This document shows, one piece after another, positions 6,480 to 21,841 of a DNA stretch of 64,000 nucleotides. The notes under the pieces are model-generated. The model searched no databases. It was not told the DNA's origin and saw nothing but the letters and a program-made list of their open reading frames with translations. The DNA is from Candidatus Amesbacteria bacterium GW2011_GWB1_47_19 (GTDB taxonomy: Bacteria > Patescibacteriota > Microgenomatia > CAZETR01 > Amesbacteraceae): positions 18,274 through 82,273 of the forward strand of contig LCNZ01000005.1 of assembly GCA_001002325.1 (NCBI GenBank). The letters run 5' to 3'. Position 1 is the first letter of the stretch. The number at the start of each line of letters is the position of its first letter. Both the position numbers and the translations under genes were made by a program.

Positions 6480-6520
6480 CGCCGATAATACACGATATAA
6501 AGAGAAAATTCAAAGTGCTG

Positions 6521-6925
6521 TCATTTCAATTCCGCCGGGCGGAACTTGTAGCCGTATATTAACATTCCCCGTTCATCGCCGTCCTGTCTGAGGCGGCGGG
6601 TGACCATTTCCACCGGAGTACCTATTTCCACGGGTTCTTTGCCCAAATCAGTAAGTTGGGCCGTCACTAAAGGGCCTTCCGCAAGTTTAATTAGGGCCAC
6701 CACATAGGGGGCGTTCTCCTCAAATCCGACCGGAGCATCATATACAGTGGTAAAAGAATATACTTCTCCCATACCGGAAAACCGGTACGGGGTCTCGGCT
6801 GTGTTTTTACAATAGGGACATATATCCCGGGGAGGAAAAATTTTAGTCTCACAGTGAGGGCAAATTTCACCGATCAGTTTGTACCGCTGGTTTTTCAGGC
6901 GCCAATGGCGGGGGATCTCCATCAT
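6521..6925 (-). CDS. DUF35-like Zn-ribbon plus OB-fold protein
   Basis: CxxC...CxxC zinc ribbon (CPHC, CPYC) followed by an OB-fold segment. This is the pattern of DUF35_N/DUF35 proteins that normally partner thiolase/HMG-CoA synthase. No such partner is present in the window. Confidence 0.65.
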   Translation of the reverse strand: MMEIPRHWRLKNQRYKLIGEICPHCETKIFPPRDICPYCKNTAETPYRFSGMGEVYSFTTVYDAPVGFEENAPYVVALIKLAEGPLVTAQLTDLGKEPVEIGTPVEMVTRRLRQDGDERGMLIYGYKFRPAELK

Positions 6926-7049
6926 CTGTTAGACGAAAAACCGAATATAAACCCACGGCAGGGTTGACAGATAAGACAATCAGAGTTAAGATGTGACCAC
7001 ACTCTTGTAACAGAGAGTGGAGATGACCCGCAAGGGAAATCTCACGAAA

Positions 7050-7078
7050 AGCCCGACCGCAAGGCCGGGTTTTTCAAA
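7050..7078. terminator. GC hairpin with flanking T/A runs, probable terminator downstream of tRNA-Leu(TAG)
   Basis: The sequence aagcccgaccgcaaggccgggttttt forms a stem-loop followed by a U-run. Read on the minus strand it follows the tRNA. Confidence 0.35.
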
Positions 7079-7080
7079 TG

Positions 7081-7161
7081 TGTCGGAGAGAGGAGTCGAA
7101 CCTCCATGGGTTACCCCACAGGTTCCTAAAACCTGCGCGTCTGCCATTTCGCCACTCCGAC
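7081..7161 (-). tRNA. tRNA-Leu (anticodon TAG), type II long variable arm
   Basis: Cloverleaf folded by hand. Acceptor is gtcggag/ctccgac, anticodon stem caggt/acctg with loop tttagga, and T-loop ttcgact. Confidence 0.75.
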
Positions 7162-7244
7162 GCGGATACGCTCATATCGGAAACCTCTTTCCTTTCGCTT
7201 TCGCTCAAGGTTTCTCCGATATATCTCGCTATGCTCGCTATAAA

Positions 7245-7287
7245 GCGCGCGCCTGCCTGCCGGCAGGCAGGTCTGCCAGTTCCGCCA
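7245..7287 (-). repeat. orphan tRNA-Leu 5' fragment interrupted by a 20-bp palindrome
   Basis: gcgcgc + CCTGCCTGCCGGCAGGCAGG (7252-7271) + tctgccagttccgcca. The last segment matches nt 1-23 of tRNA-Leu(CAG) at 9617-9700, not the adjacent tRNA-Leu(TAG). Confidence 0.6.
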
Positions 7288-7316
7288 TCGCCGCCCGTAA
7301 TTTGAGTATATTTTAC

Positions 7317-7358
7317 CAAAAAAAAGCCCCGGCTCCTGCCCGATGCCGAGGCTTTTTG
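7317..7358. terminator. bidirectional rho-independent terminator candidate
   Basis: An A-run, then gccccggctcctgcccgatgccgaggc hairpin, then a T-run. It lies downstream of the minus-strand methyltransferase gene. Confidence 0.4.
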
Positions 7359-7411
7359 GAAATTCCACCGTCCCGATTTTCATCGGAACCGCGGAACCTG
7401 ACGGGATTGTA

Positions 7412-8173
7412 CTATGATAGCGGATTAATGTCAACTCTATGGGATAATATAAACAGACTGGGACCAAAATAAACATGGGAAAGAAGCGGTTGGGAAAAAT
7501 ACTCCAGGATTAACAGCAGATGTCGGGGAAGAAATTTTTTAAGCTTTTGATAACGAAAATTGGATACGGAAAGGACGGTATCGACAAAAAACCCTGACCT
7601 TCGAAGTGATTTGATGACTGCCAGGGGATGATGATTGACAAAAGGTATAGACATCTTTTTGATGTTTTGGAGACTGCGTTTTTCAAGCGGAGTAAGCGGT
7701 ATCCGGGGACCGAAAAACAAACTGCGGAAACGGGATTTGAAGTTTTGGGAGTTGGCAAATTCCAGGATGAACCGACCACCGGGCGTTAGGAGGCGGTGAA
7801 TTTCGGTAAAGGTGGGTACGAGATCGGGCAAATGATGGGCAACCCGGATTAAGAGAGCCAGGTTTACCGATTGGGGATAAAGACGGATTTTCTGGGCAGA
7901 ACCGGACATAATGAAAATATTTTTATTTTTTTTGAGTTTGATGCGTGCCTGACGGCGGTGGTTCGCCGACGGGTCGACCAGAATAATCCGGGTACAGAAT
8001 TTTGTGAGCAGAGGTTCCAAACGGCCAAATCCTCCGCCAATATCGGCACAAACAGGAAAATTGCTGCCGGACAGTAAACGGTTTAAAGCTACGATTTCAG
8101 CCTGATGTTCGTAATCACGATTTTTCCAGTAATCGAGGTAGGAAAAATCCGGATCGTCGTAATGGTGAGTCAT
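7412..8173 (-). CDS. Class I SAM-dependent methyltransferase
   Basis: Motif I VCADIGGGFGR and motif post-II PGGRFIL. Confidence 0.75.
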   Translation of the reverse strand: MTHHYDDPDFSYLDYWKNRDYEHQAEIVALNRLLSGSNFPVCADIGGGFGRLEPLLTKFCTRIILVDPSANHRRQARIKLKKNKNIFIMSGSAQKIRLYPQSVNLALLIRVAHHLPDLVPTFTEIHRLLTPGGRFILEFANSQNFKSRFRSLFFGPRIPLTPLEKRSLQNIKKMSIPFVNHHPLAVIKSLRRSGFFVDTVLSVSNFRYQKLKKFLPRHLLLILEYFSQPLLSHVYFGPSLFILSHRVDINPLS

Positions 8174-8184
8174 GGGGAAAGCGG

Positions 8185-8754
8185 CTATTCCAAATCAGTC
8201 AAAAATTGGTTGATAGCTTTGGCCCAGGCACCGTCTTTTTCCAGGGAGGGAGGGGTATATTTCGCCATTATTTCCTCGGGTGTATCCAGTCCCTGGTCGA
8301 TATATTTACGTTTCAGGGTTTTGGCGACTGTTTCCATGGCTTCGGGGTAATTTCTGAAGCGGATAACCTGGTCGCCGTAGATGCCATATCCCCAGCAATT
8401 GTGTGACTCTTTGGGAATAATTTTACAGAGGTTGGACTCCTGTCGGGCGATGGCCACCAACAACCGATAATCAAGACGATATTTATCCGAAATGGCAATT
8501 ATCTGATCGGAATACGGTTCCAGAGGTGATCCATATCGGTGAAGATACCTGCGGATTGACAAAGCCCGAGCGTCTGAATAAGTAAATGCTGCGGACAAAT
8601 AGGGGGTGAATTCGGGAGATGAAATTCCCAAGACTTCCGGGGAAAAGGGTGAAGCCGGAACAATTGGCAAAGACATAAAAAGCAGCCTGACCGTGCCAAG
8701 AAACAAAAGGGGTAGCCCCAGGAAAAAAGTGCCTAGCCAAAATATACGGCGCAT
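8185..8754 (-). CDS. hypothetical secreted protein, possible peptidoglycan hydrolase-like
   Basis: N-terminal TM/signal. The QESNLC...NCWGYGI segment loosely resembles the SLT-type catalytic-Glu region. Weak call. Confidence 0.3.
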   Translation of the reverse strand: MRRIFWLGTFFLGLPLLFLGTVRLLFMSLPIVPASPFSPEVLGISSPEFTPYLSAAFTYSDARALSIRRYLHRYGSPLEPYSDQIIAISDKYRLDYRLLVAIARQESNLCKIIPKESHNCWGYGIYGDQVIRFRNYPEAMETVAKTLKRKYIDQGLDTPEEIMAKYTPPSLEKDGAWAKAINQFLTDLE

Positions 8755-8760
8755 AATTTT

Positions 8761-8806
8761 GAGCGGCTAAGGGGAATCGAACCCCTGTCACCCCGCCATG
8801 GCGGGG
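8761..8806 (-). repeat. duplicated 3' 30 nt of tRNA-Gly(GCC) followed by 16-bp perfect palindrome
   Basis: 8761-8790 is identical to 9072-9101. It is immediately followed by CCCCGCCATGGCGGGG (8791-8806). Confidence 0.75.
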
Positions 8807-8816
8807 AGTTCAGCTA

Positions 8817-9065
8817 TTAACAAGTATTACCTAGTAACCGCTTCATGGCATTTCCGCCTTTGTAAGATTTTAGCACTTTTTCTCTTTGTTTAGCTTCGAT
8901 GGGGATGGAATATTCTTCTTTATAAATTAGGATCCACTCCCCTCTCCTGCGAGTTGAAATATTTTGACCACGATTGTGTTCGGATAGACGACGGGATATA
9001 TCGTTGGTACTACCTATGTAATGCCGACCTGAGTAAGTATTTCTGAGAATGTATGTATAGAACAT
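8817..9065 (-). CDS. GIY-YIG nuclease family mini-protein
   Basis: YTYIL...GRHYIGST...RRLSEHN, the GIY-YIG core and Arg/Glu-His motif. 82 aa. Confidence 0.8.
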   Translation of the reverse strand: MFYTYILRNTYSGRHYIGSTNDISRRLSEHNRGQNISTRRRGEWILIYKEEYSIPIEAKQREKVLKSYKGGNAMKRLLGNTC

Positions 9066-9072
9066 TCTAATG

Positions 9073-9143
9073 AGCGGCTAAGGGGAATCGAACCCCTGTC
9101 ATCTCCTTGGCAAGGAGAAGTTCTACCATTGAACCATAGCCGC
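9073..9143 (-). tRNA. tRNA-Gly (anticodon GCC)
   Basis: Acceptor gcggcta/tagccgc, anticodon loop ttGCCaa, T-loop ttcgatt. Confidence 0.85.
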
Positions 9144-9147
9144 AGTG

Positions 9148-9220
9148 TGCCGAGAGCTGGAGTCGAACCAGCATCTGACGCTCTTCAGGCGCCCGCCGTA
9201 ACCACCTTGGCTATCTCGGC
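9148..9220 (-). tRNA. tRNA-Phe (anticodon GAA)
   Basis: Acceptor gccgaga/tctcggc, anticodon loop ctGAAga, T-arm gctggttcgactccagc. Confidence 0.85.
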
Positions 9221-9295
9221 GAAGGAATGAAATGACTGAGCTGAGATACAGCGTAAGTCGTATCTCGGCAAGGAACGAGCTTCAGTTGGATTTTA

Positions 9296-9478
9296 CTACA
9301 TCCGGGGAGGGCTTAAACAGTATCCAGTGCGGTCTCTCCCTTTTTTTAAAAATCTAAAATCTGTATTAAATAGTTTATCAACTTGAGCCGCGGATGGTCT
9401 AATACCTGTATTTTTTTCCACCAAATCTTGAAAATTAGATATTATTTCTTCCCGAAGTTGTTCTTGGGAGGTAGCCAT
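9296..9478 (-). CDS. hypothetical small ORF (60 aa)
   Basis: ORF only. Sits between tRNA-Phe and tRNA-Val. No similarity recognised. Confidence 0.2.
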   Translation of the reverse strand: MATSQEQLREEIISNFQDLVEKNTGIRPSAAQVDKLFNTDFRFLKKGRDRTGYCLSPPRM

Positions 9479-9523
9479 TTATTGATTGTATACCTGGGGT
9501 CAATAGTTGCTGACGCTGTCTGG

Positions 9524-9597
9524 TGGACGATGAGGGACTCGAACCCCCGACCCCCGCTGTGTAAAAGCGATGCTCTAACCAGCTGAGCTAATCGTCC
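9524..9597 (-). tRNA. tRNA-Val (anticodon TAC), CCA encoded
   Basis: Acceptor ggacgat/atcgtcc, anticodon loop ttTACac, T-arm gggggttcgagtccctc, followed by cca. Confidence 0.85.
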
Positions 9598-9616
9598 TGA
9601 GATTATATTACAGCTG

Positions 9617-9700
9617 TGGGCAAGAGAGGACTTGAACCTCCACTCCCTTGCGGGAACAGGCTCCTGAAGCCTGCGCGTCTGCCAGTTCCGCCACTTGCCC
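9617..9700 (-). tRNA. tRNA-Leu (anticodon CAG), type II
   Basis: Acceptor gggcaag/cttgccc, anticodon stem caggc/gcctg with loop ttCAGga, long variable arm, T-loop ttcaagt. Confidence 0.85.
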
Positions 9701-9945
9701 TAGAACTGATTCATGAGCTCCGCAATTATCTCACGTCCGAAACCGGATTTGAAGAATTTCTCAAGATTCCTGGCCTGTATTCTGGTATCGCACTCTTCGA
9801 CGTGAATCAATCGCAACGGCAAATGACCTCTTGTGGAGGGCGATTTACCACTTTCGTGTTGATACAGGCGTCTTTGTAAGTTGTTGGTTATCCCTTTGTA
9901 AATGAATTTATCCCCGTAACTTTGAAGGATATAAACAAAATACAT
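9700..9945 (-). CDS. GIY-YIG nuclease family mini-protein
   Basis: MYFVYILQS...KFIYKGITNNLQRRLYQHE. The stop codon overlaps nt 1 of tRNA-Leu(CAG). Confidence 0.8.
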   Translation of the reverse strand: MYFVYILQSYGDKFIYKGITNNLQRRLYQHESGKSPSTRGHLPLRLIHVEECDTRIQARNLEKFFKSGFGREIIAELMNQF

Positions 9946-9948
9946 GTT

Positions 9949-10073
9949 TGAAGCCTGCGCGCCTGCCTGCCGGCAGGCAGGTCTGCCAGTTCCGCCACTT
10001 GCCCTAGAACTGATTCATGAGCTCCGCAATTATCTCACGTCCGAAACCGGATTTGAAGAATTTCTCAAGATTC
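9949..10073 (-). repeat. direct repeat of 9665-9769 (GIY-YIG 3' end plus tRNA-Leu nt 1-36) with inserted 20-bp palindrome
   Basis: 13 + 92 nt are identical to 9665-9677 and 9678-9769. Perfect palindrome CCTGCCTGCCGGCAGGCAGG at 9962-9981 sits between them. Confidence 0.8.
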
Positions 10074-10194
10074 TTATGAGAAAAATGAATCAATCAAACT
10101 GCTTATATTGATGTACCCAAACCAAAATGTCATATGTCTTACGCGAAAAAAATATAAAATTGTCAATTCATTGGGTATAATTAAGAAAGTAGGA

Positions 10195-10278
10195 GCCGGG
10201 ATGCTGAAACTGGTAGACAGGCATGCTTGAGGGGCATGTGTCAGCAATGGCGTGGAGGTTCGAGTCCTCTTCCCGGCA
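10195..10278 (+). tRNA. tRNA-Leu (anticodon GAG), type II
   Basis: Acceptor gccggga/tcccggc, anticodon stem catgc/gcatg with loop ttGAGgg, long variable arm. Confidence 0.8.
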
Positions 10279-10282
10279 CACT

Positions 10283-10366
10283 GCCGGGGTGGCGAAATGG
10301 TAGACGCAAGGGCCTTAAGAGCCCTCGGTCCAAAAGACCATGCGAGTTCGAGTCTCGCCCCCGGCA
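10283..10366 (+). tRNA. tRNA-Leu (anticodon TAA), type II
   Basis: Acceptor gccgggg/ccccggc, anticodon stem agggc/gccct with loop ctTAAga, T-arm gcgagttcgagtctcgc. Confidence 0.85.
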
Positions 10367-10368
10367 CA

Positions 10369-10764
10369 ATGAGTTTTGAGTGTGTTAATTGTCATTACCT
10401 GGTACGGGAAGGTAAAAGATATGCCGGGACGGAAAACAGAAACCATTGCACGAAATGTTTGTGGTCATTGCATGCGGATTTAAGACCTGGTGACAGAAAA
10501 GCATTGTGCGGAGGAAAAATGAATCCCGCGGGGCTTACTTTTAAGCGGGTGAAAAAAGATAAGTACGGGAAAGAAAAGGTTGGAGAATTGATGCTAGTAC
10601 ACCAATGCGTAAAATGCCTAGAAGTATCAATAAACAGGATTGCGGCGGATGACGACCCGGTGGAAATAATGAATCTCGTAAATTCCGGTTTTTCTGTTGA
10701 AGGAATCAGTGTGCTGGATGAGGCTGACAGGTCGGAAGTACGCAGGCAGCTATTCGGGGTGTAA
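10369..10764 (+). CDS. RNHCP-domain zinc-ribbon protein
   Basis: Literal RNHCTKC signature plus additional CxxC pairs. The ATG lies 2 nt after tRNA-Leu(TAA). The ORF-track upstream extension from 10252 covers two tRNAs and is rejected. Confidence 0.6.
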   Translation: MSFECVNCHYLVREGKRYAGTENRNHCTKCLWSLHADLRPGDRKALCGGKMNPAGLTFKRVKKDKYGKEKVGELMLVHQCVKCLEVSINRIAADDDPVEIMNLVNSGFSVEGISVLDEADRSEVRRQLFGV

Positions 10765-10775
10765 AATTATAAACA

Positions 10776-10848
10776 CGGAGAGTGGCGCAGCTGGTAGCGC
10801 GCATCGTTTGGGACGATGAGGCCCCGGGTTCGAGTCCCGGCTCTCCGA
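10776..10848 (+). tRNA. tRNA-Pro (anticodon TGG)
   Basis: Acceptor cggagag/ctctccg, anticodon stem catcg/cgatg with loop ttTGGga, T-arm ccgggttcgagtcccgg. Confidence 0.85.
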
Positions 10849-10904
10849 CAAAGTTGAGGCGAAGTTTATTTTTAGCGTGAAATGGTTTAGGATATTGTCA
10901 GAGT

Positions 10905-11345
10905 ATGTGGAAAAAATCGTGGGGAGTGTTTGTAGGTGCGGGACTGGTAGCCGGTTTGTTGCCGGTGATGGTCTGGGGGGTTAGTTCCGGAACCAGGACA
11001 CTGTTCTCCACCCGGGCTCAGACACATGAACTGAGATTATGGTGGGAGCCGGCGGAAGCGACCCTGCGGATAGATCAGGCGATGAAATTTAAGCTGATGG
11101 CAAATGTTGAAAGTAAAAACGGAATTCCGGCACTGGAAATGGAATTGGATATCCCCAAGGGGATACTTGTAGCCCCGAAGATTGTCAGATACGGTAAACT
11201 TATCGGTACCTCAGTGGTCGGTGAAGTGGATGTAGTGGCGGTAAACCAGGGAGATTTTTTGATTGGTATCATAGAAGACAAAGTAGTTACCGGCTATCCT
11301 GATATCACCATAATAGCCTCTCCGGTAAAAATCAAAGTCAGGTAA
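10905..11345 (+). CDS. hypothetical secreted protein (first gene of pilin-like operon)
   Basis: N-terminal signal/TM. Ends 4 nt before the next gene. Confidence 0.45.
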   Translation: MWKKSWGVFVGAGLVAGLLPVMVWGVSSGTRTLFSTRAQTHELRLWWEPAEATLRIDQAMKFKLMANVESKNGIPALEMELDIPKGILVAPKIVRYGKLIGTSVVGEVDVVAVNQGDFLIGIIEDKVVTGYPDITIIASPVKIKVR

Positions 11346-11348
11346 AGT

Positions 11349-11795
11349 ATGAAGTTCAAGCCTGCCCTGTCCCTGATCGAATTATTGCTGGTAGTATCGC
11401 TGATCGGCATTCTGTCGCTGCCGGGAGTATTGGGAATAATTAATATCAGAGCCCGCCAGTCACTGGATGTATCTACTAACAAGTTTGCCGAGATTATGCG
11501 ACAAGCCCACATTTTTTCGAGGGAAAACAGAGAAAGTTTGAGTTGGGGAGTAAAAGGAACCGATAAGAATAGTTACCAACTGGTGACCCGGGATGCGACC
11601 AAGACAGTGACAGTCAGGGAAAAGCACAGACTGGAATCGCCGACAGTTTTTATAATTTATCCGTTTGAAGTGTGGTTTGACCAGGGAACGGGAAATACCG
11701 AAATCAACCGGATTTTCATGACCTATGCGTCCAAGGGCGGTACCCGAGTGGTGGGTTTGTCCCCGACCGGTTTAGTAGTTATCGGTATCCTATGA
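11349..11795 (+). CDS. Type IV pilin-like protein (prepilin-type N-terminal domain)
   Basis: N-terminus MKFKPA|LSLIELLLVVSLIGIL is a class III signal. Ala, not Gly, sits at position -1. Confidence 0.7.
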   Translation: MKFKPALSLIELLLVVSLIGILSLPGVLGIINIRARQSLDVSTNKFAEIMRQAHIFSRENRESLSWGVKGTDKNSYQLVTRDATKTVTVREKHRLESPTVFIIYPFEVWFDQGTGNTEINRIFMTYASKGGTRVVGLSPTGLVVIGIL

Positions 11796-12283
11796 AACCC
11801 CGGGCGTTTACAATAATTGAAGTTGTACTGGCGATAACTCTTTTAATCATTTTGGTAACCAGCGTATATCCCCTGGTGGGATGGATGAGAACCAAATCGA
11901 TACGTCTGCAATACGACAGCCAGGCAGCGCTGGTACTTCAGGAAGGGATGGAGGCGGCATACAGCGTTATGATGTCCGACTGGAGCGGCTTTCCTCCCGG
12001 ACCGGGTTATTTTTATCCGATAATTGATGCGTCTTCGGGAACACCAGTCTGGAAGCTGACTGCCGGAATACAATCTAATTATCAGGCCAGGTTTGAAAGA
12101 AAAATACTGATATCCCAGGTATGCCGGAGGCTGGTAACCGGTCAGATGGAAAATACTCCGTGCCAGGCCGATTATCCTGCCGATCCATACAGCCGGAAAG
12201 TTACAACCACCGTAAGCTGGAGGGAATCAGGAAAAACCAAGAGTATTAACGCCCAATTATTAACGGTGAGTATAAACCGATGA
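11792..12283 (+). CDS. Type IV pilin-like protein (prepilin-type N-terminal domain)
   Basis: MKPRA|FTIIEVVLAITLLIIL. ATGA overlap with the upstream gene. Confidence 0.7.
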   Translation: MKPRAFTIIEVVLAITLLIILVTSVYPLVGWMRTKSIRLQYDSQAALVLQEGMEAAYSVMMSDWSGFPPGPGYFYPIIDASSGTPVWKLTAGIQSNYQARFERKILISQVCRRLVTGQMENTPCQADYPADPYSRKVTTTVSWRESGKTKSINAQLLTVSINR

Positions 12284-12726
12284 AGAAGGGAATATCTCTA
12301 ATAGAATTGTTAATTGCCATGGCGCTGGCGGTGTTTGTATTTTTGCTGGTGATATCGATGCTGATGACAATACTAACGGCAAATGCCAGAAGCAGCCGGC
12401 AGGAGACGTTTGAGCAGACAAAAAACGATTTGCAGAGCGAGCTGACAAACGCTGTTAAATGGGGTAAGGATATCAGCTGGTCTTCAGGACAGCTGATCGT
12501 AGACGGTGTAGCGTATTCGAGGATCAGCAATGTGATAATAAAAAACGGACAGTTGTTGACGCCACCGCAAGTCAAAATCACCAACTGGACAATAACCGAG
12601 TTGGGGCAGGGAGATCCGAACATCAGTTTGCGCATGGAAATAGCTATGGAAAACGCAGCTAACAGCAGTATTAAAGACAACATGATTTTGACAGTTACAA
12701 AAAGGCAGACGATCATTGTGAAATGA
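12280..12726 (+). CDS. Type IV pilin-like protein (prepilin-type N-terminal domain)
   Basis: MKKG|ISLIELLIAMALAVFVF. ATGA overlap with the upstream gene. Confidence 0.7.
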   Translation: MKKGISLIELLIAMALAVFVFLLVISMLMTILTANARSSRQETFEQTKNDLQSELTNAVKWGKDISWSSGQLIVDGVAYSRISNVIIKNGQLLTPPQVKITNWTITELGQGDPNISLRMEIAMENAANSSIKDNMILTVTKRQTIIVK

Positions 12727-14021
12727 AAACCATGCGAAATACCAACGGTGTTGCTGTGATGATGCTGGTGCTGGTAGTGTCCATGATAGCGGCTTTTATG
12801 GCCATTGCCTGGCAGTCACGGATTTTATTGGGGGTATACAGGAATAAAGCCCTGTCGGACATTATTGCCGTTTCTTACCATGGGGAGTCCAAGGCCAATG
12901 ACATCCTGGGCAAATTCCTGGGAGATTATCCGGGGGCATTTACTTATAATTTTGAAACTCCATGGGAAGATTTGGGAGACGGAACACAATTGAAAGTCGA
13001 GGGAAAACTGATTGATAATAAGGAAACACTAAATATTACAGCCAAGCGAACGTATGCCAGCACCCAATATCAGGTTACCAGGGAGACGGAAACTTTTTCG
13101 GCGGAAGCTTCGGATGCCGAGATAGTATTTTCGCTGGACTGCACGGGATCCATGGCAGCTGCCGCTTGTGCGGATACAAATATTTGCAATTACCAGCCTC
13201 CCGGGAGTCCGTTTTACGCGATTACCAGGATGGACAAACTGAAAGAGGCCTTGATTGTTTTTCTGGACAAGCTGGAAGCGCTTCCAGGGCATGAAAAAAT
13301 AAAGATCGGACTCTCAGTGTTTACATTAAAGAGCGACTGGATGTATACCAGCTACGCTGCGGACGGAACCCCGACCGGACAGGCAATAAAACCCGATAAT
13401 GCGATATCGTCAGATATTCCGGCTATTAAAAGCGCCGTCAATAACTTTCTGGGAAGAAGCGGTGAAGAGCACAGTATGGCTTGTAAAAAAATTCTGACCT
13501 TTACGAATGTAGGAGGGGGACTGATTTTCGCCCATGACTACCTGAAGACCAGAAAACCACTGGGAAAGAAACAGATAGAAATATTGGTTACCGACGGCTG
13601 GTCTAATCAGAGAACTCCACACGCGGGATGCAGCCAAAATATTTTTTGCCCCGGGGATGCGATTTATTGCAGCGGCTATGGTTATACCTGCCCGGTTCCA
13701 TTACCGAACTGTCAGATGCATGGTTGGGAGTTTACAGCCTGTGCGCTGGCAAGTACCCAGCAACAATGGCAACCTATATCTTTTGCGTCCGATCCCTGGC
13801 CTGTCGGAGTACGTGACCCTGAGGTTGATATGTATACGGTGGGTGTATATTCTGATCCGCCTAATTATATAAATTCGGCATTCACCAATTTTTCAAATAA
13901 GTATTTTCAGAATGATGAGGCTTTTCAATTACCGGTTATATTGTCGGATATTTTTGATGAAATATTAGAAAGTTTTACAGTAATTAATGTTCAGCGACTG
14001 GTACCTTCGCCGATAAGATAA
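12723..14021 (+). CDS. von Willebrand factor type A domain protein with N-terminal TM (pilus-associated adhesin-like)
   Basis: MIDAS motif DCTGSM (DxSxS) and downstream TDG. N-terminal hydrophobic helix. ATGA overlap with the last pilin-like gene. Confidence 0.7.
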   Translation: MKTMRNTNGVAVMMLVLVVSMIAAFMAIAWQSRILLGVYRNKALSDIIAVSYHGESKANDILGKFLGDYPGAFTYNFETPWEDLGDGTQLKVEGKLIDNKETLNITAKRTYASTQYQVTRETETFSAEASDAEIVFSLDCTGSMAAAACADTNICNYQPPGSPFYAITRMDKLKEALIVFLDKLEALPGHEKIKIGLSVFTLKSDWMYTSYAADGTPTGQAIKPDNAISSDIPAIKSAVNNFLGRSGEEHSMACKKILTFTNVGGGLIFAHDYLKTRKPLGKKQIEILVTDGWSNQRTPHAGCSQNIFCPGDAIYCSGYGYTCPVPLPNCQMHGWEFTACALASTQQQWQPISFASDPWPVGVRDPEVDMYTVGVYSDPPNYINSAFTNFSNKYFQNDEAFQLPVILSDIFDEILESFTVINVQRLVPSPIR

Positions 14022-14046
14022 AATGGGTTATAATTCTTCGGGAATT

Positions 14047-14088
14047 GCGGGTGTAGCTCAATGGCAGACCTGCCTGTCGGCAGGCAGG
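14047..14088 (+). repeat. 5' 22 nt of tRNA-Gly(TCC) followed by 20-bp near-palindrome
   Basis: 14047-14068 gcgggtgtagctcaatggcaga is identical to 14341-14362. Then CCTGCCTGTCGGCAGGCAGG at 14069-14088. Confidence 0.75.
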
Positions 14089-14108
14089 GAGCCAGAACTT
14101 TGATTTTA

Positions 14109-14327
14109 ATGAAAAGGTATTTTGTATATATCACCCGCAGTAAATCAACCGGCAGATTTTATACCGGTATGACAAACGACTTGCAAAGAAGGTTAAAACA
14201 GCATAACCGACTAACATCAAATACCCTTGCTACAAGGAAATTGACCGACTTTGAAATTGTTTACAAAGAAATGCAACAAAGCAGAGCAGAAGCAAGAAAA
14301 GTAGAGAGTTTCGTGACAAAATTGTAA
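14109..14327 (+). CDS. GIY-YIG nuclease family mini-protein
   Basis: MKRYFVYITRSKSTGRFYTGMTNDLQRRLKQHN. The ORF-track start at 14061 lies inside the tRNA fragment/palindrome. The ATG at 14109 is preferred. Confidence 0.75.
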   Translation: MKRYFVYITRSKSTGRFYTGMTNDLQRRLKQHNRLTSNTLATRKLTDFEIVYKEMQQSRAEARKVESFVTKL

Positions 14328-14340
14328 AATTCGGTAGCAT

Positions 14341-14411
14341 GCGGGTGTAGCTCAATGGCAGAGCGCCAGTTTTCCAAACTGGTGACGAGGGTCCGATTCC
14401 CTTCACCCGCT
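14341..14411 (+). tRNA. tRNA-Gly (anticodon TCC)
   Basis: Acceptor gcgggtg/cacccgc, anticodon stem ccagt/actgg with loop ttTCCaa, T-loop tccgatt. Confidence 0.85.
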
Positions 14412-14561
14412 CAATAGCGAAATGGTTTTGTGTTTTCTCCAATTTTCCTCAAGAAATCGATCTTTTCCCGAGTTCTAGCCACCATTTTTAGCGTTTTATC
14501 TTTGGCCTGGAAAAAATCATACCGGTAACCGGAGTCGGACCTAATTTGTAGAAAAAATGAG

Positions 14562-15377
14562 TCAGTTTATACTGGAAACTCGCATCCAAATCGGATAATG
14601 GTCAGATAGATTTCCGTATTTTTCGTCAGTTATAACCTTGAATTCTTCTAGTTTTATCAGGTTGTTTCCGAAAGCATAATCTAATCTGAGTATAGGCTCA
14701 TTTACGGGAAGCGGAAATAATTTTGCCGGAACTGTGTCACCTTTTCCTTTACCAAGATCAACAAAACCTGCATTTGTAAGTATTTTCGTTACTTCGCCTC
14801 GTTTCATCTCGTTAAGTGATCCCTTCATACTTTTCATAGGTCCGGGGAATTTACGACCTAATGTCTCTAATTGTTTGTCGGTTTCTGCTAAATCATCATT
14901 ATCAAAGGTGTTTAAATCCCCTGTAATTATCGTTGGAGTGTTTGGGTTGACTAATTTTAATACTGCCTCGATTTGTTTAATTCTAGTATCTTCACTGACA
15001 TCGTCTAAATAGACTGAAAATATATCTATTCCACCAACCTTAGTTCTAATCGCATTTCTGGTAGCAAGCCAAATAGTTTGAATTTCCGTTTCGGCGATTT
15101 GAGAGAAAACAGTAATACCATTGTCATGTCCTTTTGTTACTAATCTTTGATCTTCTAGCTTTACTGTGTGCACGTAGGGGTATCCAAATATTTGTTTTAA
15201 CTCATCTGGTGTAAAAACTTCTGTCCATCTATGGGTATCAACTAAACTGACAATATCTGGGTTCAAATCTTTGATGACACTAGCTAAACCATCAATTCGT
15301 TCAGGTCTTTTTTCTGGGCTGCCATAATCTTTAAAACCACCACTTAAAATATTCCAAGACAAAATTTCTGTTGACAT
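14562..15377 (-). CDS. Endonuclease/exonuclease/phosphatase (EEP) family protein
   Basis: N-terminal SWNIL..GG, a D/N-rich core and C-terminal SDHYPI, all typical of the EEP fold. Start chosen at MSTEIL. Confidence 0.7.
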   Translation of the reverse strand: MSTEILSWNILSGGFKDYGSPEKRPERIDGLASVIKDLNPDIVSLVDTHRWTEVFTPDELKQIFGYPYVHTVKLEDQRLVTKGHDNGITVFSQIAETEIQTIWLATRNAIRTKVGGIDIFSVYLDDVSEDTRIKQIEAVLKLVNPNTPTIITGDLNTFDNDDLAETDKQLETLGRKFPGPMKSMKGSLNEMKRGEVTKILTNAGFVDLGKGKGDTVPAKLFPLPVNEPILRLDYAFGNNLIKLEEFKVITDEKYGNLSDHYPIWMRVSSIN

Positions 15378-15476
15378 ATGTTTTATTTCGGTCCTGCGGC
15401 TAAGATGGATCACAATTTGTGCCATCAGCTCCCTTAAAAGGTACTTTCACCGCAGAGATTATTCGGTACCCAAATA

Positions 15477-16154
15477 TTAGCATATTTTTCGATCTTTGTG
15501 ACGTTTGCCAAATACTTCTAAAAACAGAAAAGGATTCATTTTCTCAAGATAGTCTTCGAATACGTTTAGTTGTAAAATAACATCAGCTGTTACGTAATAG
15601 CGAAGAATTATTTTTACCGCTGTTGCAAATGACATATCAGAATGTTCGAGTAGATACGCTCCCAGGAAAGGGGTATAGATTCTGCCGGGGTTAGTTTCGA
15701 TGACTGTTTTTAACTCGCTTACTTTTATCCAATGGCAACCTTTGGTCTCATTGGTTTCACTGGCAGGAGTTCCTGTCGCAGTGCATCTGAAAATGAATCC
15801 AACAAATGGACCTTCCGGCGATTGAGTTACACAAAAGGGATGGAAAATATCTGAAGACATGTCATGTGAGCTTGTGTGTAGCGTTTCATCTTCGCCACCC
15901 ACCAATGTGATCTCCAGCCCAGATTCTTCCAGCACCTCTCTTCTGACCGTCTGGTATATTGACTCACCTGCACGGAATTTACCACCAGGTATTTCAAGCG
16001 TTCCTGAAAATTTAGGGTCGGACTCCTTACTGCGAGTCTGAACGATTATTTCTTTTTCGCCTGAATCCCCGAGTCTTTCGATTATCGCCCCGACAAATGG
16101 AATTGTCAGCGCCTCTGTGCCTATGCGCGGTAATTTATCATAGGGAATGTACAT
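15477..16154 (-). CDS. NUDIX hydrolase
   Basis: Nudix box GGKFRAGESIYQTVRREVLEESGL. Confidence 0.8.
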   Translation of the reverse strand: MYIPYDKLPRIGTEALTIPFVGAIIERLGDSGEKEIIVQTRSKESDPKFSGTLEIPGGKFRAGESIYQTVRREVLEESGLEITLVGGEDETLHTSSHDMSSDIFHPFCVTQSPEGPFVGFIFRCTATGTPASETNETKGCHWIKVSELKTVIETNPGRIYTPFLGAYLLEHSDMSFATAVKIILRYYVTADVILQLNVFEDYLEKMNPFLFLEVFGKRHKDRKIC

Positions 16155-16332
16155 GGGTGTATTTTAGTTTAAAAGTCGCAAAAATAACAGGTCTTGAGAA
16201 AGTTGTTGAATTCCGTGAGTTGGTAATAAAGCGTAATTATTTCTTCCGGGGTGATATTATTGAAAAGGTTATTTAGTTCGATTCCAGTACGGTTACCGGC
16301 TCATTAAAGATATGAGAATTGAGAAATGAGAG

Positions 16333-16884
16333 ATGAGAAATAAAATTGTTTTATTAATAGCGTTGGTGATAATAGCGGGAGGGTTGGGGTGGGGATGGAA
16401 AATGATGAAAAAGGGAAATACCGGTAAGTGGAGAGAATACCGAAGCACTACCGGAGGATTCAGGCTGGATTATCCTGAAAAGTGGGAGGTGAAGGAATAT
16501 CAAACGAATGAAAATTTTGAGCTGAGGGTGGAGTTTGTTCCGACTACCGAGTCCGACCGGATCGGTCAGGTGGGATTGATTTCCGCGACGGTGGTGGCCA
16601 GTCCAGGTGCCGGGCAGATGATGGCAACGCCGGAAGAGTTTGCGGATTGGGAAAAACAGAAGACAGCGACAACTAATTCCGGGATAGCAAAATACGGTGC
16701 CGGGAAGATCGGAGGAGAGAAAGCAGTGATTCTGTCGGACCAGCTGCGGGATTTCTGGGTCCTTACCGCATGGTTCCGTCGGCAGGACAGGAATTACTAT
16801 TTGGGGGTAATGGGTAATGACAGCCGGGGAAAAGCCGATGAGGATATATATAAAAAAATTGCAAACTCCTGGAAATGGCTTTAG
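16333..16884 (+). CDS. hypothetical secreted/membrane-anchored protein
   Basis: N-terminal TM. No family recognised. Confidence 0.4.
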   Translation: MRNKIVLLIALVIIAGGLGWGWKMMKKGNTGKWREYRSTTGGFRLDYPEKWEVKEYQTNENFELRVEFVPTTESDRIGQVGLISATVVASPGAGQMMATPEEFADWEKQKTATTNSGIAKYGAGKIGGEKAVILSDQLRDFWVLTAWFRRQDRNYYLGVMGNDSRGKADEDIYKKIANSWKWL

Positions 16885-17873
16885 CGCAAACGGGATAATA
16901 TGGTGGGGATCATGGATCCGGTGGCGATTTGCGGTTGACCGGCGGTAGAAATATAAACAGGTATAAAACGGGCATCGACTAATTGACGATTAAAGAATTT
17001 ATATTCGCCGACTACACCCTGGCGGGTGGTTTGGGACCAATTCTGGTCGAATACAAAATTTCCGTGTGAATAAACGATAAGTTTGTCTTTGTAAATTTCC
17101 AAGGGTTGAATCCAATGGGGATGATTACCCAATACAAGATCGGCACCCGAATCAATACTTAAATGCGCCAACTCTCTTTGGCGGTCGGTAACTTTGTGAG
17201 TATATTCATTGCCCCAATGAAATTGAACGATCACCTGCCGGGCATTTTTCCGGGCAAGTAGGATTTGAGCTGTTACAGATCCGGCATCTGCAGCAGCAAT
17301 ACCGGTGTAAGGACCACCGATATCATTGAATCCCAAAAAGGCATAAGCCCCTCCCCTTCTCTGAGTATATACCGGTCCGGAAACGCCAGTGGTGAGAATT
17401 TTATTTCGGTTTAACAGGTCCATGGTGGTGGCTAATCCATCGGGACCGAAGTTGGTGGAATGATTATTGGCCAGGTTGGCGATATCAATACCGGATTCGG
17501 ATAAAGACTTTGCGAATTCGGGACGGCCACAAAAGATGGTTCCCTGGGGCAGTACAGGGCAGGCAGGAAGCAGCGGGGATTCAAGATTGATGTATGTTAT
17601 GTCTGCGGAGGCAAGCAGGTTTTTGAGGGCTCTGAAAGGATAACCGAAGTCCCCGGAGTTTACAGCTGAAATATTTACGGATCTGGCGGTCAGAATATCC
17701 CCGGTTGAGAGCAAAGTAACGGTTTGTTCCGGATCAAGAGAAGCAGACCATGAATGGTCAGAGCCCAGAATACTATCTATAGTCGGCGGGGATATGATTG
17801 TGGGAGTGGGAGACGGAATGACCGGCAAGATGACGGAGGCCGGTGGCGGGGTAGGACAAAGGATTCCCCACAA
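16881..17873 (-). CDS. CapA/PGA_cap family metallophosphatase-like protein
   Basis: YINLESP...HWGNEY...GADLVLGNHPHWIQP...YSHGNFVFDQ, the CapA family signature. Confidence 0.75.
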   Translation of the reverse strand: MWGILCPTPPPASVILPVIPSPTPTIISPPTIDSILGSDHSWSASLDPEQTVTLLSTGDILTARSVNISAVNSGDFGYPFRALKNLLASADITYINLESPLLPACPVLPQGTIFCGRPEFAKSLSESGIDIANLANNHSTNFGPDGLATTMDLLNRNKILTTGVSGPVYTQRRGGAYAFLGFNDIGGPYTGIAAADAGSVTAQILLARKNARQVIVQFHWGNEYTHKVTDRQRELAHLSIDSGADLVLGNHPHWIQPLEIYKDKLIVYSHGNFVFDQNWSQTTRQGVVGEYKFFNRQLVDARFIPVYISTAGQPQIATGSMIPTILSRLR

Positions 17874-17982
17874 AGAACAAATGAGCAGACTGACGGCAGA
17901 AATGAATGAGCTGATAGTTAGATTTTAACTTAAAGATGCCGGGGGGTGTAAAATTTGTGTTAGAGCGACAGTCTCAAGTTAA

Positions 17983-18054
17983 GCCCTTGTAGCTCAACGG
18001 ATAGAGTACTTGTCTTCGGAACAAGTGATGGAGGTTCGATTCCTCCCAAGGGCA
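17983..18054 (+). tRNA. tRNA-Arg (anticodon TCG)
   Basis: Acceptor gcccttg/caagggc, anticodon stem cttgt/acaag with loop ctTCGga, T-arm ggaggttcgattcctcc. Confidence 0.85.
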
Positions 18055-18068
18055 CCCTTCGACTTCGC

Positions 18069-19685: not shown

Positions 19686-19832
19686 CAGTAATAATCATAG
19701 CACGAGCCATACCCAACCTGTGGAATAACCATACACCTATTCCCTCAATCGGTTTCGACGCCAAAGGATTCTTTCTTCGGTATTTCTACCCTGTCAACAG
19801 TATGACTCAAATATTCTAAGAGAATATCGCTT

Positions 19833-20327
19833 ATGATAAATAAAATGACCATAAATTCAACCTTTACTCACAAAGGGCGGGTTCTCAAGGTGAAGTATTA
19901 TGATTTAGACTCTTTTTCTTCTTTGCCTTATGCCAAATGCCAGCAGGTATATGGTGTATGCTTCTACAAAGATAAAATGGTTATTGTTTCAGGGGAAGGG
20001 ACCAGCGGAGGTTGGGGACTGGTCGGCGGCCACATCGAAAAGGGTGAAACCTACGACCAAACCCTGAGAAGAGAAGTCCGGGAAGAAACAAATATGCGGG
20101 TCTTAAAATCGTATCCAATAGGTGTTCAGGAGGTAACAACCCCTGACGGCAAAGTCGTTTTCCAGCTTCGATACTGTGCCATAGTCGAACCTCTGGGAAA
20201 ATTTGAGAAAGATCCCGCTGGTAGTGTAACCGAGATTAAACTTATTAATTCCGAAGACTACAAAAAATATTTCGACTGGGGTGAAATCGGGGAAAGAATT
20301 ATCCAAAGAGCGATAGACCTTAAATGA
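19833..20327 (+). CDS. NUDIX hydrolase
   Basis: Nudix box GGHIEKGETYDQTLRREVREETNM. Confidence 0.8.
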   Translation: MINKMTINSTFTHKGRVLKVKYYDLDSFSSLPYAKCQQVYGVCFYKDKMVIVSGEGTSGGWGLVGGHIEKGETYDQTLRREVREETNMRVLKSYPIGVQEVTTPDGKVVFQLRYCAIVEPLGKFEKDPAGSVTEIKLINSEDYKKYFDWGEIGERIIQRAIDLK

Positions 20328-20466
20328 AAAAGAAAGACGGTGCATTTGTCACACTTTTTAAAGATGAAGGACGGGATTAGATCTTTTTAGTCTTCAGATC
20401 CGACTGGCCAATTTGGGTCCAGCCGGGAGGAGGAATTGAGCCGGGAGAAAATCATAGGTACAATTG
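20324..20466 (+). pseudogene. NUDIX hydrolase relic (in-frame stop and truncation)
   Basis: Reads MKKKDGAFVTLFKDEGRD*IFLVFRSDWPIWVQPGGGIEPGENHRYN*. The start of the Nudix box (PGGGIEPGE) is intact, then the frame ends. Confidence 0.5.
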
Positions 20467-20511
20467 ATTCAAACGGGGAAGCGTTTCACAAGAAGTCATT
20501 CCCAGCCAGGG

Positions 20512-21012: not shown

Positions 21013-21407
21013 AGATTAATCGTTTGAGATGTTTAATCATTTCAGCGGTTCCATATACCTTTGTCAGTAGATATTGAGAAAACGGTTCGGGGTTTTTAAG
21101 GTATTTTATAACCATTTCAAAGGGATTTTGTGGAAAGGTTTGCGATTGATCCCAACCAAGTAATTATTATGACACAAGGAGTAACCAGCGAAGAGGTGAA
21201 AGAGAATGCTCAAAAAGTGGCTGAGTTGGTTAAACATAGAGGATACAGGCTACTTACCAGATTGCACGTAGACTTGTGGGGAGCTAAAAGACGGGTTTAA
21301 AGATATGAGGCTAACAGGTTCGAATCTCGTCTTGGGGTGCAATAGTTTGATATGGTTGTCTGAAGCTAAATATTTTAGGGTGGTGTACGGAATGGTTCGA
21401 CGGGAGG

Positions 21408-21698: not shown

Positions 21699-21729
21699 AA
21701 GTTCGGATGTCCCGTCAAACGGGACTATG

Positions 21730-21802: not shown

Positions 21803-21841
21803 GTATAATTGATATCAATATTTTACAATATAATATCCCGG

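Follow-up and report, generated by a model that had tools for sequence, protein, structure and literature searches.

A GIY-YIG mini-gene between a palindrome-split tRNA fragment and an intact tRNA gene in Candidatus Amesbacteria, a probable member of a mobile, homing-like cassette family in Patescibacteria

Introduction

How can a nuclease gene lie directly against the first nucleotide of a tRNA gene, behind a second and broken copy of that tRNA's own 5' part, and leave the tRNA complete? The question was raised by a locus, here called site B, in a stretch of 64,000 nt from Candidatus Amesbacteria bacterium GW2011_GWB1_47_19 (contig LCNZ01000005.1, positions 18,274-82,273). The whole stretch is referred to as the window, and its features are given in window coordinates. 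Site B combines an intact tRNA-Leu(CAG), a GIY-YIG mini open reading frame (ORF #1), a displaced tRNA fragment and a 20-nt palindrome (PAL). A preliminary description, made from the sequence alone, had taken it for a target-site duplication or tandem re-insertion of a homing-endonuclease-like cassette into a tRNA gene. The analysis reported here leads us to favor, with a probability of roughly 0.6, the explanation that site B is one copy of a family of mobile, homing-like selfish cassettes in tRNA genes of the Candidate Phyla Radiation (CPR)/Patescibacteria. Related loci and contigs are cited by L numbers.

Three known systems bear on the question. Ssn proteins (Chenal et al. 2025) are single-domain GIY-YIG nucleases that act site-specifically on single-stranded DNA (ssDNA); their genes are flanked by multi-copy NTS/SRM hairpins, and the nucleases bind these hairpin repeats and cut ssDNA a few nucleotides upstream (PMC11893778). 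In phages T4 and T6, SegB is a free-standing GIY-YIG homing endonuclease encoded in a tRNA gene cluster (PMC2330249; PMC13096335). In T6, SegB nuclease activity and homologous recombination produce tandem repeats with a unit of tRNA-Tyr plus a 3'-truncated segB, and microhomology exists between the 5' end of the tRNA and the 3' end of the nuclease gene (PMC13096335). Mitochondrial mORFs, which encode LAGLIDADG or GIY-YIG endonucleases, are found with duplicated gene termini at atp6 of Allomyces and at atp6, atp9, cox2 and nad3 of Glomus; an mORF enters an essential gene together with a substitute for that gene's end, the native end is pushed aside as an unexpressed fragment, and the two gene-end copies can differ, one being foreign (PMC3630166).

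Results

Architecture of site B

Site B was read on the minus strand, in the order 10073 to 9616, and the following parts were recognized:

10005-10073, minus strand: copy of the last 69 nt of the ORF (residues 59-81), part of a 93-nt repeat and matched by tblastn at 10075-10007
9982-10004, minus strand: displaced tRNA-Leu(CAG) nt 1-23, 100% identical to the intact tRNA
9962-9981, no strand: PAL, CCTGCCTGCCGGCAGGCAGG, placed seamlessly between displaced tRNA nt 23 and 24
9949-9961, minus strand: displaced tRNA-Leu(CAG) nt 24-36, identical to the intact tRNA
9946-9948, minus strand: AAC, a spacer of 3 nt that separates the displaced tRNA piece from the ATG, without a Shine-Dalgarno sequence
9700-9945, minus strand: GIY-YIG mini-ORF #1, 81 amino acids, single domain (ORF list; Pfam PF01541, E=6.8e-14)
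9616-9700, minus strand: intact tRNA-Leu(CAG), the functional copy (ARAGORN; Rfam RF00005, 53.2 bits at 9617-9700)

The repeat finder returned an exact direct repeat of 93 nt (9677-9769 = 9981-10073), continued by 12 nt (9665-9676 = 9949-9960) that are offset by 20 nt in the upstream copy only. Together they form 105 nt at 100% identity, which comprise the final 69 nt of the ORF followed by tRNA nt 1-36 and end after the second anticodon base (nt 36). The upstream copy is split by PAL, a perfect 20-nt palindrome whose position is ambiguous by 1 nt owing to a shared C. The stop codon TAG of ORF #1 occupies 9702-9700, and its G doubles as tRNA nt 1. The arrangement of repeat, ORF and tRNA that had first been described was confirmed by the repeat finder, ARAGORN, Rfam and Pfam, as were the overlap of the TAG with tRNA nt 1 and the position of the palindrome between tRNA nt 23 and 24 (9962-9981). 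In detail, the total of 105 nt includes 69 rather than 70 nt of the ORF end, and the tRNA, intact as claimed, ends at 9616 according to ARAGORN instead of 9617.

PAL was found at three sites in the window versus 0 expected from 100 shuffles, and this count, together with the exact repeat of 93 nt, excludes a chance origin. The 700-nt region containing the repeat was 100% identical in a metagenome contig from JGI (L001) and in a contig of a metagenome-assembled genome (MAG) from NCBI (L002; DNMO01000005.1, GCA_003488165.1), and 699 of 700 positions were identical in a second JGI sample (L004). NCBI assigns a protein identical to that of ORF #1 to Candidatus Amesbacteria. The layout was reproduced in three independent assemblies, and an assembly artefact is therefore unlikely.

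A family of cassettes in other genomes

A protein-pattern scan with one genome per species yielded 26 loci outside the window, whose records are labeled Gottesman-, Davies-, Levy- or Amesbacteria, Microgenomates or Patescibacteria. At all 26, a same-strand tRNA started between -36 and +26 nt from the stop codon of the GIY-YIG gene; ARAGORN called this tRNA at 24 loci, and at L009 (N-run) and L018 (locus end) its 5' end was seen in the sequence only. The tRNAs were those for Leu (all five anticodons), Cys, His, Arg(CCT) and Asn. The tie between a GIY-YIG gene and a tRNA kept intact by partial duplication, as it had been proposed for site B, was borne out in the window and at the family loci, and the finding of the family at ten or more different tRNA species across other genomes agrees with the behavior of a mobile insertion.

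The full-length set consisted of 24 loci, namely 21 of the 26 plus L002, L005 and L008; five further loci were relics. An exact PAL lay 7-36 nt upstream of the ATG in 20 of the 24, and the other four carried PAL-derived sequences (with one mismatch, split, or present as three degenerate copies in tandem). Identity to the query among the proteins of the 26 loci was just 41-65%, which makes PAL the best-conserved component of the cassette by a wide margin. In every case it interrupted a duplicate of the 5' portion of the downstream tRNA, whose sequence resumed seamlessly past it. The insertion point followed tRNA nt 22 at 13 loci and nt 9, 11, 12, 16, 17 or 18 elsewhere. The displaced tRNA piece ended variably, from about nt 24 to nt 45, and was separated from the ORF by a spacer of 1-10 nt; none of the family ORFs had a Shine-Dalgarno sequence. 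A -10-like box was present 3-20 nt upstream of the displaced fragment at 15 of 20 loci, compared to a background of 30%, and because this box was retained, the displaced piece is the original, promoter-proximal end of the tRNA gene.

PAL also left a trace in annotated proteins, which supports its link to the family independently of genomic context. Peptides encoded by it (LPAGRQ, PACRQA, CLPAGR) were recognized in over-called N- or C-terminal extensions of 14 of 59 close homologs, and they occurred in 24 of 149 family representatives versus 0 of 120 proteins of a control family. Tandem or nested forms were observed at L008, L011, L029, L084, L128 and L133. At L198 (58% GC), PAL-bearing displaced fragments flanked a unit of tRNA-Leu(TAA) plus ORF on both sides, indicating that the family is not strictly limited to low-GC CPR genomes. 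Some displaced fragments differed from the adjacent tRNA and were genuine alleles with the same anticodon: the fragment of L023 was identical at 40 of 44 positions to the tRNA-Leu(TAG) of another genome, and that of L021 at 33 of 38 positions to the tRNA-Leu(TAA) of L026. These alignments suggest that the two tRNA halves can come from different genomes.

Two further observations were made on the family loci. In L008 (2800-3400), tRNA-Leu(CAG) nt 1-17 were followed by an insert of ~105 nt with its own hairpin; this unit was present twice, upstream of the PAL fragment and between the ORF and the intact tRNA, and it is a second element splitting tRNA 5' pieces. Several loci (L009, L010, L016-L020, L022, L023, L026-L029) belong to MAGs titled 'uncultured Gammaproteobacteria bacterium' (binchicken and similar co-assemblies), and such titles on MAGs with CPR-type cassettes look like placeholders or errors.

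Gain and loss between relatives

Empty sites were sought on non-chimeric Amesbacteria contigs (L190-L195), which were found via orthologs of the gene next to ORF #2, the GIY-YIG mini-gene at tRNA-Gly(GCC) in the window. L190 (15 kb) carries divergent sequence on both sides and hence is not chimeric. Its tRNA-Leu(CAG) is identical to that of the window at 85 of 85 positions (84 of 85 in L191) and is preceded only by a 48-nt spacer and tRNA-Leu(GAG), with no ORF, no tRNA fragment and no PAL at this tRNA. In L190 and L191, the tRNA-Gly(GCC) is identical to that of the window (72 of 72) and free of a cassette, and it directly abuts the orthologous next gene in L190, L191, L192 and L194, which represent three lineages. 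PAL was searched for in L190-L197, and none was found. In L033, another Amesbacteria genome, tRNA-Leu(CAG) is empty and tRNA-Leu(TAA) holds a decayed cassette without PAL, and L190 itself carries a GIY-YIG gene, 62% identical to window ORF #4, before tRNA-Leu(TAG). The comparison of orthologous tRNA-Leu loci that had been called for at the outset thus returned relatives with an identical tRNA-Leu(CAG) and no cassette; cassettes have been gained or lost between relatives. In the mirror-image cassette of the window, which contains ORF #2, the displaced 3' fragment retains the native junction to the next gene, so that this fragment is the original end and the tRNA part adjacent to the ORF is the new copy.

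L003, a contig from another sample, was set aside as an empty site. Its positions 1-964 are 100% identical to window 10035-9072, and the identity drops to ~71% exactly at the 3' end of tRNA-Gly(GCC), which marks either a chimeric join or a real recombination breakpoint at the cassette.

The surroundings of the tRNAs were compared as well. In L190 (816-1269), tRNA-Leu(GAG) is co-oriented with, directly upstream of and nearly identical to tRNA-Leu(CAG); in the window (9616-10367), it is inverted and quite different in sequence, and the tRNA cluster is rearranged around the cassette. Short GC-rich palindromes (GTCACGCTGAGCGTGAC, CCAAGCTTAGCTTGG and GGGACGCTCAGCGTCCC) stand in tRNA spacers of relatives (L190 992-1039; L003 2440-2500) and may be further hairpin elements or processing signals.

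The nuclease protein

ORF #1 scored 52.4 bits against PF01541 (cut-off 22.6), the sole Pfam family above cut-off, and residues Y5, Y16, G18, R26, H30 and E62 were invariant in alignments. The AlphaFold model (predicted local distance difference test, pLDDT, 94.7) consisted of a GIY-YIG domain in the order beta-beta-alpha-beta-alpha-alpha and nothing else. Against solved structures, a profile search returned the UPF0213 proteins 1ywl (E=2.5e-7) and 1zg2 (E=1.7e-6), followed by SLX1, and the catalytic domain of I-TevI (1mk0) only at E=0.66. Foldseek gave 1zg2 at E=3e-4, Slx1 at E 5e-3 to 4e-2 (TM 0.65-0.68, 26-33% identity), I-TevI at E about 1 and UvrC at E about 2. The protein belongs to the UPF0213/SLX1 (URI) branch of the GIY-YIG superfamily, not to the I-TevI or UvrC branch. 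The family match, the invariant residues and the predicted fold argue that the ORF is a real GIY-YIG nuclease gene, as it had been read initially.

The family comprised 1,838 representatives at E<=1e-10 and 11,231 at E<=1e-3, and the best 150 representatives were 63-214 amino acids long, except one of 655. NCBIfam models gave no match to ORF #1, and ORFs #2 and #3 matched TIGR01453 ('group I intron endonuclease') only below threshold. Neither Pfam nor the model indicated a DNA-binding domain in the 81-residue protein, the chain being the catalytic domain only; this argues against long-target recognition of the Seg/I-TevI type and for recognition of a structure or hairpin.

PAL outside the cassettes

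PAL was also searched for without reference to the gene, and it was present in at least 120 metagenome stretches and 35 IMG/VR contigs. At least 169 copies were recovered in at least 155 loci (L035-L189), in genomes of 29-71% GC. A Pfam scan of 118 PAL-neighboring ORFs identified ordinary housekeeping genes, with GIY-YIG as the most recurrent family (3 of 118), and no recurrent transposase (including HUH/Y1) or consistent partner among them. About 13 copies lay in tRNA-like DNA; for low-GC loci this applied to 12 of 81, compared to 3.3% of random 60-mers. Elsewhere, PAL formed the center of other hairpins or lay within short tandem repeats, often with a 7-nt period. PAL is thus not the incidental interruption of a repeat that it had seemed in the preliminary description; it is the most conserved part of the cassette and a separately dispersed element.

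Several fragments carried more than one PAL. In L128, one contiguous tRNA-Arg fragment holds two exact PALs, the first after nt 12 and the second after nt 22; L133 likewise has two PALs, L029 a tandem of fragment plus PAL, and L005 three adjacent degenerate copies. Such multiplicity indicates recurrent insertion rather than a single inherited event. The spacing between neighboring PALs was 9-13 nt in L128, L133 and L161. Folded as ssDNA, PAL gives a hairpin of -8 kcal/mol with an 8-bp stem and a CCGG loop. The sequence had no match in the literature searched and none in Rfam. An origin as a sequencing adapter was rejected, since the sequence continues unbroken to either side of PAL, some copies are degenerate or split, and PAL recurs at reproducible positions.

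When PAL was excised in silico, a full tRNA was restored only in L179. On this 64% GC 'viral' contig, a full-length tRNA-Met (2239-2330) carries PAL (2284-2303) in its variable region; ARAGORN called the tRNA-Met with PAL in place, and its removal left a normal 72-nt tRNA-Met. If this tRNA is functional, PAL may serve it as a long variable arm. L156 is similar.

Promoter-like elements at site B

Two matches to a promoter consensus were found at site B:

9725-9753, minus strand: TTCAAA-N17-(TG)GATAAT within the 3' end of the ORF, 24 nt upstream of the tRNA (consensus match)
10029-10057, minus strand: duplicate of this element, upstream of the displaced fragment, PAL and the ORF (consensus match)

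The motif overlaps the conserved FFKSGFGREII codons. At many family loci, a sigma-70-like TTYAAA-N17-GATAAT or -AATAAT element lies 10-35 nt before the tRNA, within the C-terminal codons. Its position may represent dual coding that gives the displaced tRNA a promoter, and the duplicated element in the retained 69 nt may now drive ORF #1.

Other cassettes in the window

A tblastn search with ORF #1 located four GIY-YIG mini-ORFs in the 64 kb (9945-9700, 9065-8817, 14109-14327 and ~21698-21420), each adjoining a same-strand tRNA (Leu-CAG, Gly-GCC, Gly-TCC and His, respectively). All three window copies of PAL lie within a 5' tRNA fragment upstream of an intact tRNA. In addition to site B, the window contains:

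7252-7296, minus strand: site A, a relic whose ORF is lost, made of a tRNA-Leu-like 5' fragment (7272-7296) and an exact PAL (7252-7271)
8761-9143, minus strand: mirror-image (3'-type) cassette with intact tRNA-Gly(GCC) (9072-9143), ORF #2 of 82 amino acids (8817-9065), another GC palindrome, CCCCGCCATGGCGGGG (8791-8806), and an exact copy of tRNA nt 43-72, 30 nt (8761-8790), from the ORF list, tblastn and tRNA comparison
14047-14412, plus strand: site C cassette with tRNA-Gly(TCC) nt 1-22 (14047-14068), the PAL variant CCTGCCTGTCGGCAGGCAGG with one mismatch (14069-14088), GIY-YIG ORF #3 of 72 amino acids (14109-14327) and intact tRNA-Gly(TCC) (14341-14412), from ARAGORN, tblastn and tRNA comparison
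21420-21801, minus strand: tRNA-His (21729-21801) followed by GIY-YIG ORF #4 (~21420-21698), from ARAGORN and tblastn

Site A stands ~90 nt upstream of an intact tRNA-Leu(TAG) (7080-7161) and shares 41 identical nt with site B (7247-7287 = 9957-9997). In this relic region (7161-7340, minus strand), the acceptor stem of the 5' fragment is unlike that of every tRNA-Leu of the window, and PAL is followed by ~90 nt that contain a hairpin and no ORF. L003 and L190 carry a different, intact GIY-YIG gene at tRNA-Leu(TAG), where the window has this relic. No clear tRNA duplicate was found at tRNA-His and ORF #4 (21420-21801); ORF #4 is preceded by two hairpins, GTCCCGTTTGACGGGAC and AAAACGTCCGACGTTTT, downstream of tRNA-His, and the T-loop of this tRNA (AGCATCA) looks non-canonical. 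Beside the tRNA cluster, a run of small ORFs (10905-12726, plus strand) encodes prepilin-like N-termini (e.g., MKFKPALSLIELLLVVSLIG). These sequences are consistent with a type IV pilus or competence apparatus, which would be relevant if the nuclease acts on incoming ssDNA.

Discussion

Each cassette has three parts: the original promoter with tRNA nt 1 to ~24-45, disabled by PAL in the D-arm region; after a spacer of 1-10 nt, an ORF for a single-domain UPF0213/SLX1-type GIY-YIG protein of ~80 amino acids; and a complete functional copy of the same tRNA that abuts or overlaps the stop codon. In the explanation that we favor, the two tRNA pieces, as direct repeats, would serve as built-in homology arms. 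Through them, recombination or gene conversion, probably stimulated by the nuclease, would carry a copy of the cassette into a cognate tRNA gene that is still unoccupied. With a left exchange within tRNA nt 1-~22 (5' of PAL) and a right exchange within the intact tRNA, the outcome would be the layout seen here, with the tRNA still working. Exchanges on the 3' side of PAL would carry it into the functional tRNA and be eliminated by selection, and the confinement of PAL to the displaced copy would follow. Recombination between the repeats would excise the cassette precisely and leave empty sites, and unequal recombination between sister chromosomes would duplicate it.

The extra 69 nt of ORF end are peculiar to site B and are best read as the remnant of a tandem cassette, not as a product of the primary insertion. 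An unequal crossover within nt 1-23, between a displaced fragment and an intact tRNA, would generate the tandem ORF-fragment/PAL-ORF-tRNA, and deletion of the upstream unit down to its last 69 nt would then leave the 105-bp repeat. The classical target-site duplication suggested in the preliminary description is not supported: across the family, the end of the displaced piece varies from about nt 24 to 45, and the boundary in the anticodon loop is thus no defined integration point. The label of a homing-endonuclease-like element fits the presence/absence polymorphism but not the protein, a single catalytic domain that is not of the Seg/I-TevI type, and the more general idea of a mobile cassette that keeps its tRNA intact by duplication is supported.

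PAL is probably the hairpin recognized by the nuclease, by analogy with Ssn and its NTS repeats, and the spacings of 9-13 nt between PALs would agree with cleavage close to a hairpin held by the enzyme. PAL may in addition stabilize the cassette, since splitting the upstream repeat into stretches of at most 23 nt would make recombinational deletion less frequent. Neither hairpin recognition nor repeat-breaking accounts for the seamless insertion of PAL or for its identity across phyla. We tentatively raise the possibility that PAL and the mini GIY-YIG gene form a two-part system, in which an Ssn/SLX1-like nuclease that reads a structure or hairpin would repeatedly insert or spread PAL seamlessly in genomes of several phyla and the gene would persist and move horizontally between its self-carried tRNA arms, leaving the tRNA undisrupted. 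If true, this would be a 'portable-arm' homing cassette able to enter any genome that shares the conserved tRNA.

Several findings weigh against a homing-like cassette. The intact tRNA of an occupied locus retains any site within the tRNA, and the rule that insertion destroys the target fails here. The homology arms 5' of PAL are 9-23 nt, which is very short for RecA-type recombination, and sequence-specific homing on double-stranded tRNA genes is doubtful for a protein without a DNA-binding domain. PAL is spread over genomes of 29-71% GC, and a GIY-YIG gene lies within 600 nt at only six of the 155 PAL loci listed, all six of low GC. The varying positions of PAL and the two PALs in L128 require recurrent seamless insertion. 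The published motif of Ssn repeats has 0 matches in 110 kb of family loci, and the promoter-like match at site B is not significant alone (2 found versus 1.2 expected). The upstream flank is rearranged relative to the empty-site relative, so that the original insertion is not exactly reconstructable.

The rival that survives best holds that the protein is a resident, domesticated Ssn-like host nuclease that acts on PAL hairpins as ssDNA, for example to modulate transformation or recombination, and rides on strong tRNA promoters; the tRNA fragments and tandem pieces would be by-products of recombination induced by hairpins or nicks, not of spread. Among characterized systems, Ssn is the closest. 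Both nucleases are of ~80-95 amino acids and consist of the GIY-YIG domain alone (81 here, where Ssn are defined by at most 150), and both accompany a short GC-rich hairpin repeat that is linked to the gene and also scattered in multiple copies and across phyla (PAL falls within the 20-50 nt defined for Ssn repeats), in a gene-plus-hairpin layout akin to a minimal mobile element. Ssn are ~94-residue single-domain proteins, 71% of their genes are hairpin-flanked, 81% of the genomes rich in the repeat carry the gene, and they modulate transformation (PMC11893778). PAL is likewise dispersed, mostly away from GIY-YIG genes, the displaced fragments retain tRNA promoters, and pilin-like proteins are encoded in the window. 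However, close relatives with identical tRNAs have neither cassette nor PAL, the occupied tRNA gene differs between related genomes, relics are common, and some displaced fragments are foreign alleles. The genomes carry several diverged copies each, four of them in this 64 kb, and the canonical SRM was not found. We consider this rival unlikely.

PAL itself differs from the repeats of Ssn in being perfect and orientation-free, without the asymmetric GTCAT-type flank that Ssn needs, and the closest sequence and fold matches of the protein here are UPF0213 and Slx1. The proposal that PAL is a canonical NTS/SRM was rejected, since the SRM pattern HGTCWYN(0-2)YYVSBRHN(0-5)WNVSBRGN(0-2)RNCYNB had 0 matches in the 24 family loci (110,588 nt) and none within 500 nt of the window ORF. 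The term tRNA has 0 occurrences in the Ssn paper, which hence reports no tRNA association or partial duplication (PMC11893778). By analogy, the cassette nuclease may work like Ssn; we do not file it as one.

A tandem duplication of purely local origin, made by slippage during replication or by unequal crossover without any part played by the nuclease and with the GIY-YIG gene beside the tRNA by chance, would suit a 105-nt repeat that is local and 100% identical, and unequal crossover is also part of the explanation that we favor. This alternative is improbable, because over 20 independent genomes and three sites of the window share the layout of fragment, PAL, ORF and tRNA, and the proteins of the family loci, at 41-65% identity, argue against one recently transferred segment. 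It would also leave the insertion of PAL unaccounted for.

The classical integrative elements enter tRNA genes and rebuild them from a partial copy that they bring along. On this precedent, a tyrosine or serine recombinase supplied in trans could have duplicated an att site in the tRNA, as phages, integrative and conjugative elements or integrative mobilizable elements do. Such integration is very improbable here: no integrase was found in or near the ~300-bp units among the ORFs of the window and the related loci, the duplicated segment stops at variable points between nt 24 and nt 45, cassettes of 5' and of 3' polarity exist, and the units are far smaller than known integrative elements. Integration of this type was rejected for want of a recombinase and a fixed att core.

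Collapsed or mis-joined metagenome repeats would be a natural suspicion with metagenomic data, the more so as L003 begins inside the repeat and switches from 100% to ~71% identity at the end of a tRNA. An artefact is nevertheless extremely improbable, given that three independent assemblies agree, that the 93-nt repeat is shorter than a typical read, and that many unrelated assemblies share the architecture. A degenerate group I tRNA intron with an intron-encoded GIY-YIG endonuclease is barely credible and was rejected along with any other known RNA: such introns are frequent in tRNA genes of Patescibacteria (PMC13011429) and ORFs #2 and #3 bear a weak, sub-threshold NCBIfam similarity to 'group I intron endonuclease', but Rfam at E<=1 over 6500-22500 gave tRNAs only, the downstream tRNA is uninterrupted and needs no splicing, and the ORF lies outside the functional tRNA.

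The mobile cassette that we favor resembles SegB in placing a GIY-YIG gene among tRNA genes, and the T6 tandems are very like the partial tandem at 9949-10073. SegB is a phage-borne protein of ~220 amino acids with a DNA-binding region, whereas the protein here has 81, is chromosomal, belongs to the SLX1/UPF0213 branch and stands beside a displaced tRNA fragment that bears PAL. The replacement-end logic of mORFs is seen again in the ORF #2 cassette, the foreign-allele fragments and the empty sites. The targets of mORFs are the 3' ends of mitochondrial protein genes; the cassettes described here are ~300 bp long, lie in bacterial tRNA genes, may duplicate either end, and carry a conserved palindrome on the displaced piece.

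The best matches by sequence and fold were the 'URI-domain-only' proteins of UPF0213/COG2827 (1ywl and 1zg2) and the nuclease domain of SLX1. SLX1 needs SLX4 and extra domains, and the latter are absent from the 81-residue protein. No paper retrieved for UPF0213, YhbQ or COG2827 carried the name in its title or abstract, and no function or genomic habit was recovered from this search. Fungal mitochondrial genomes carry GC-rich palindromes. Repetitive extragenic palindromes (REP) and bacterial interspersed mosaic elements (BIME), with their REP-associated tyrosine transposases (RAYT), have been discussed alongside Ssn (PMC11893778). PAL is like both in being a short GC-rich palindrome dispersed in intergenic DNA, of the kind thought to be mobilized in trans by a hairpin-recognizing enzyme; it differs from REP/BIME in being 20 nt long and identical across phyla, with no target duplication and no associated HUH/Y1 transposase.

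Each ingredient has a precedent: tRNA loci that harbor a GIY-YIG gene, gene ends duplicated by endonuclease ORFs, and hairpins that accompany single-domain GIY-YIG nucleases. The combination, a ~300-bp cassette between a PAL-disabled fragment and an intact tRNA across CPR lineages, is undescribed in the papers searched. None of these papers linked GIY-YIG genes, tRNA genes and CPR/Patescibacteria, and the words 'palindrom', 'duplicat' and 'pseudogene' were absent from the paper on tRNA introns of Patescibacteria (PMC13011429).

With its perfect conservation and seamless insertion across genomes of 29-71% GC, the 20-nt palindrome is apparently a mobile sequence in its own right. The present data connect a large, uncharacterized clade of single-domain GIY-YIG proteins, with 1,838 representatives at E<=1e-10, to this defined 20-nt hairpin, and the candidate nuclease-PAL pair could, by analogy with Ssn, serve as a sequence- or structure-specific ssDNA tool. 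For genome annotation, the cassette would explain a recurrent feature of CPR/Patescibacteria, namely small GIY-YIG genes fused to tRNA genes and accompanied by tRNA pseudo-fragments; annotators now label these genes 'endonuclease' or 'hypothetical', and the fragments can cause chimeric joins in metagenomes. For the biology of the family, the cassette would be a ~300-bp minimal model of a selfish nuclease gene that uses an essential gene as a safe harbor and as portable homology for horizontal spread, and it would be the bacterial counterpart of the mitochondrial endonuclease ORFs.

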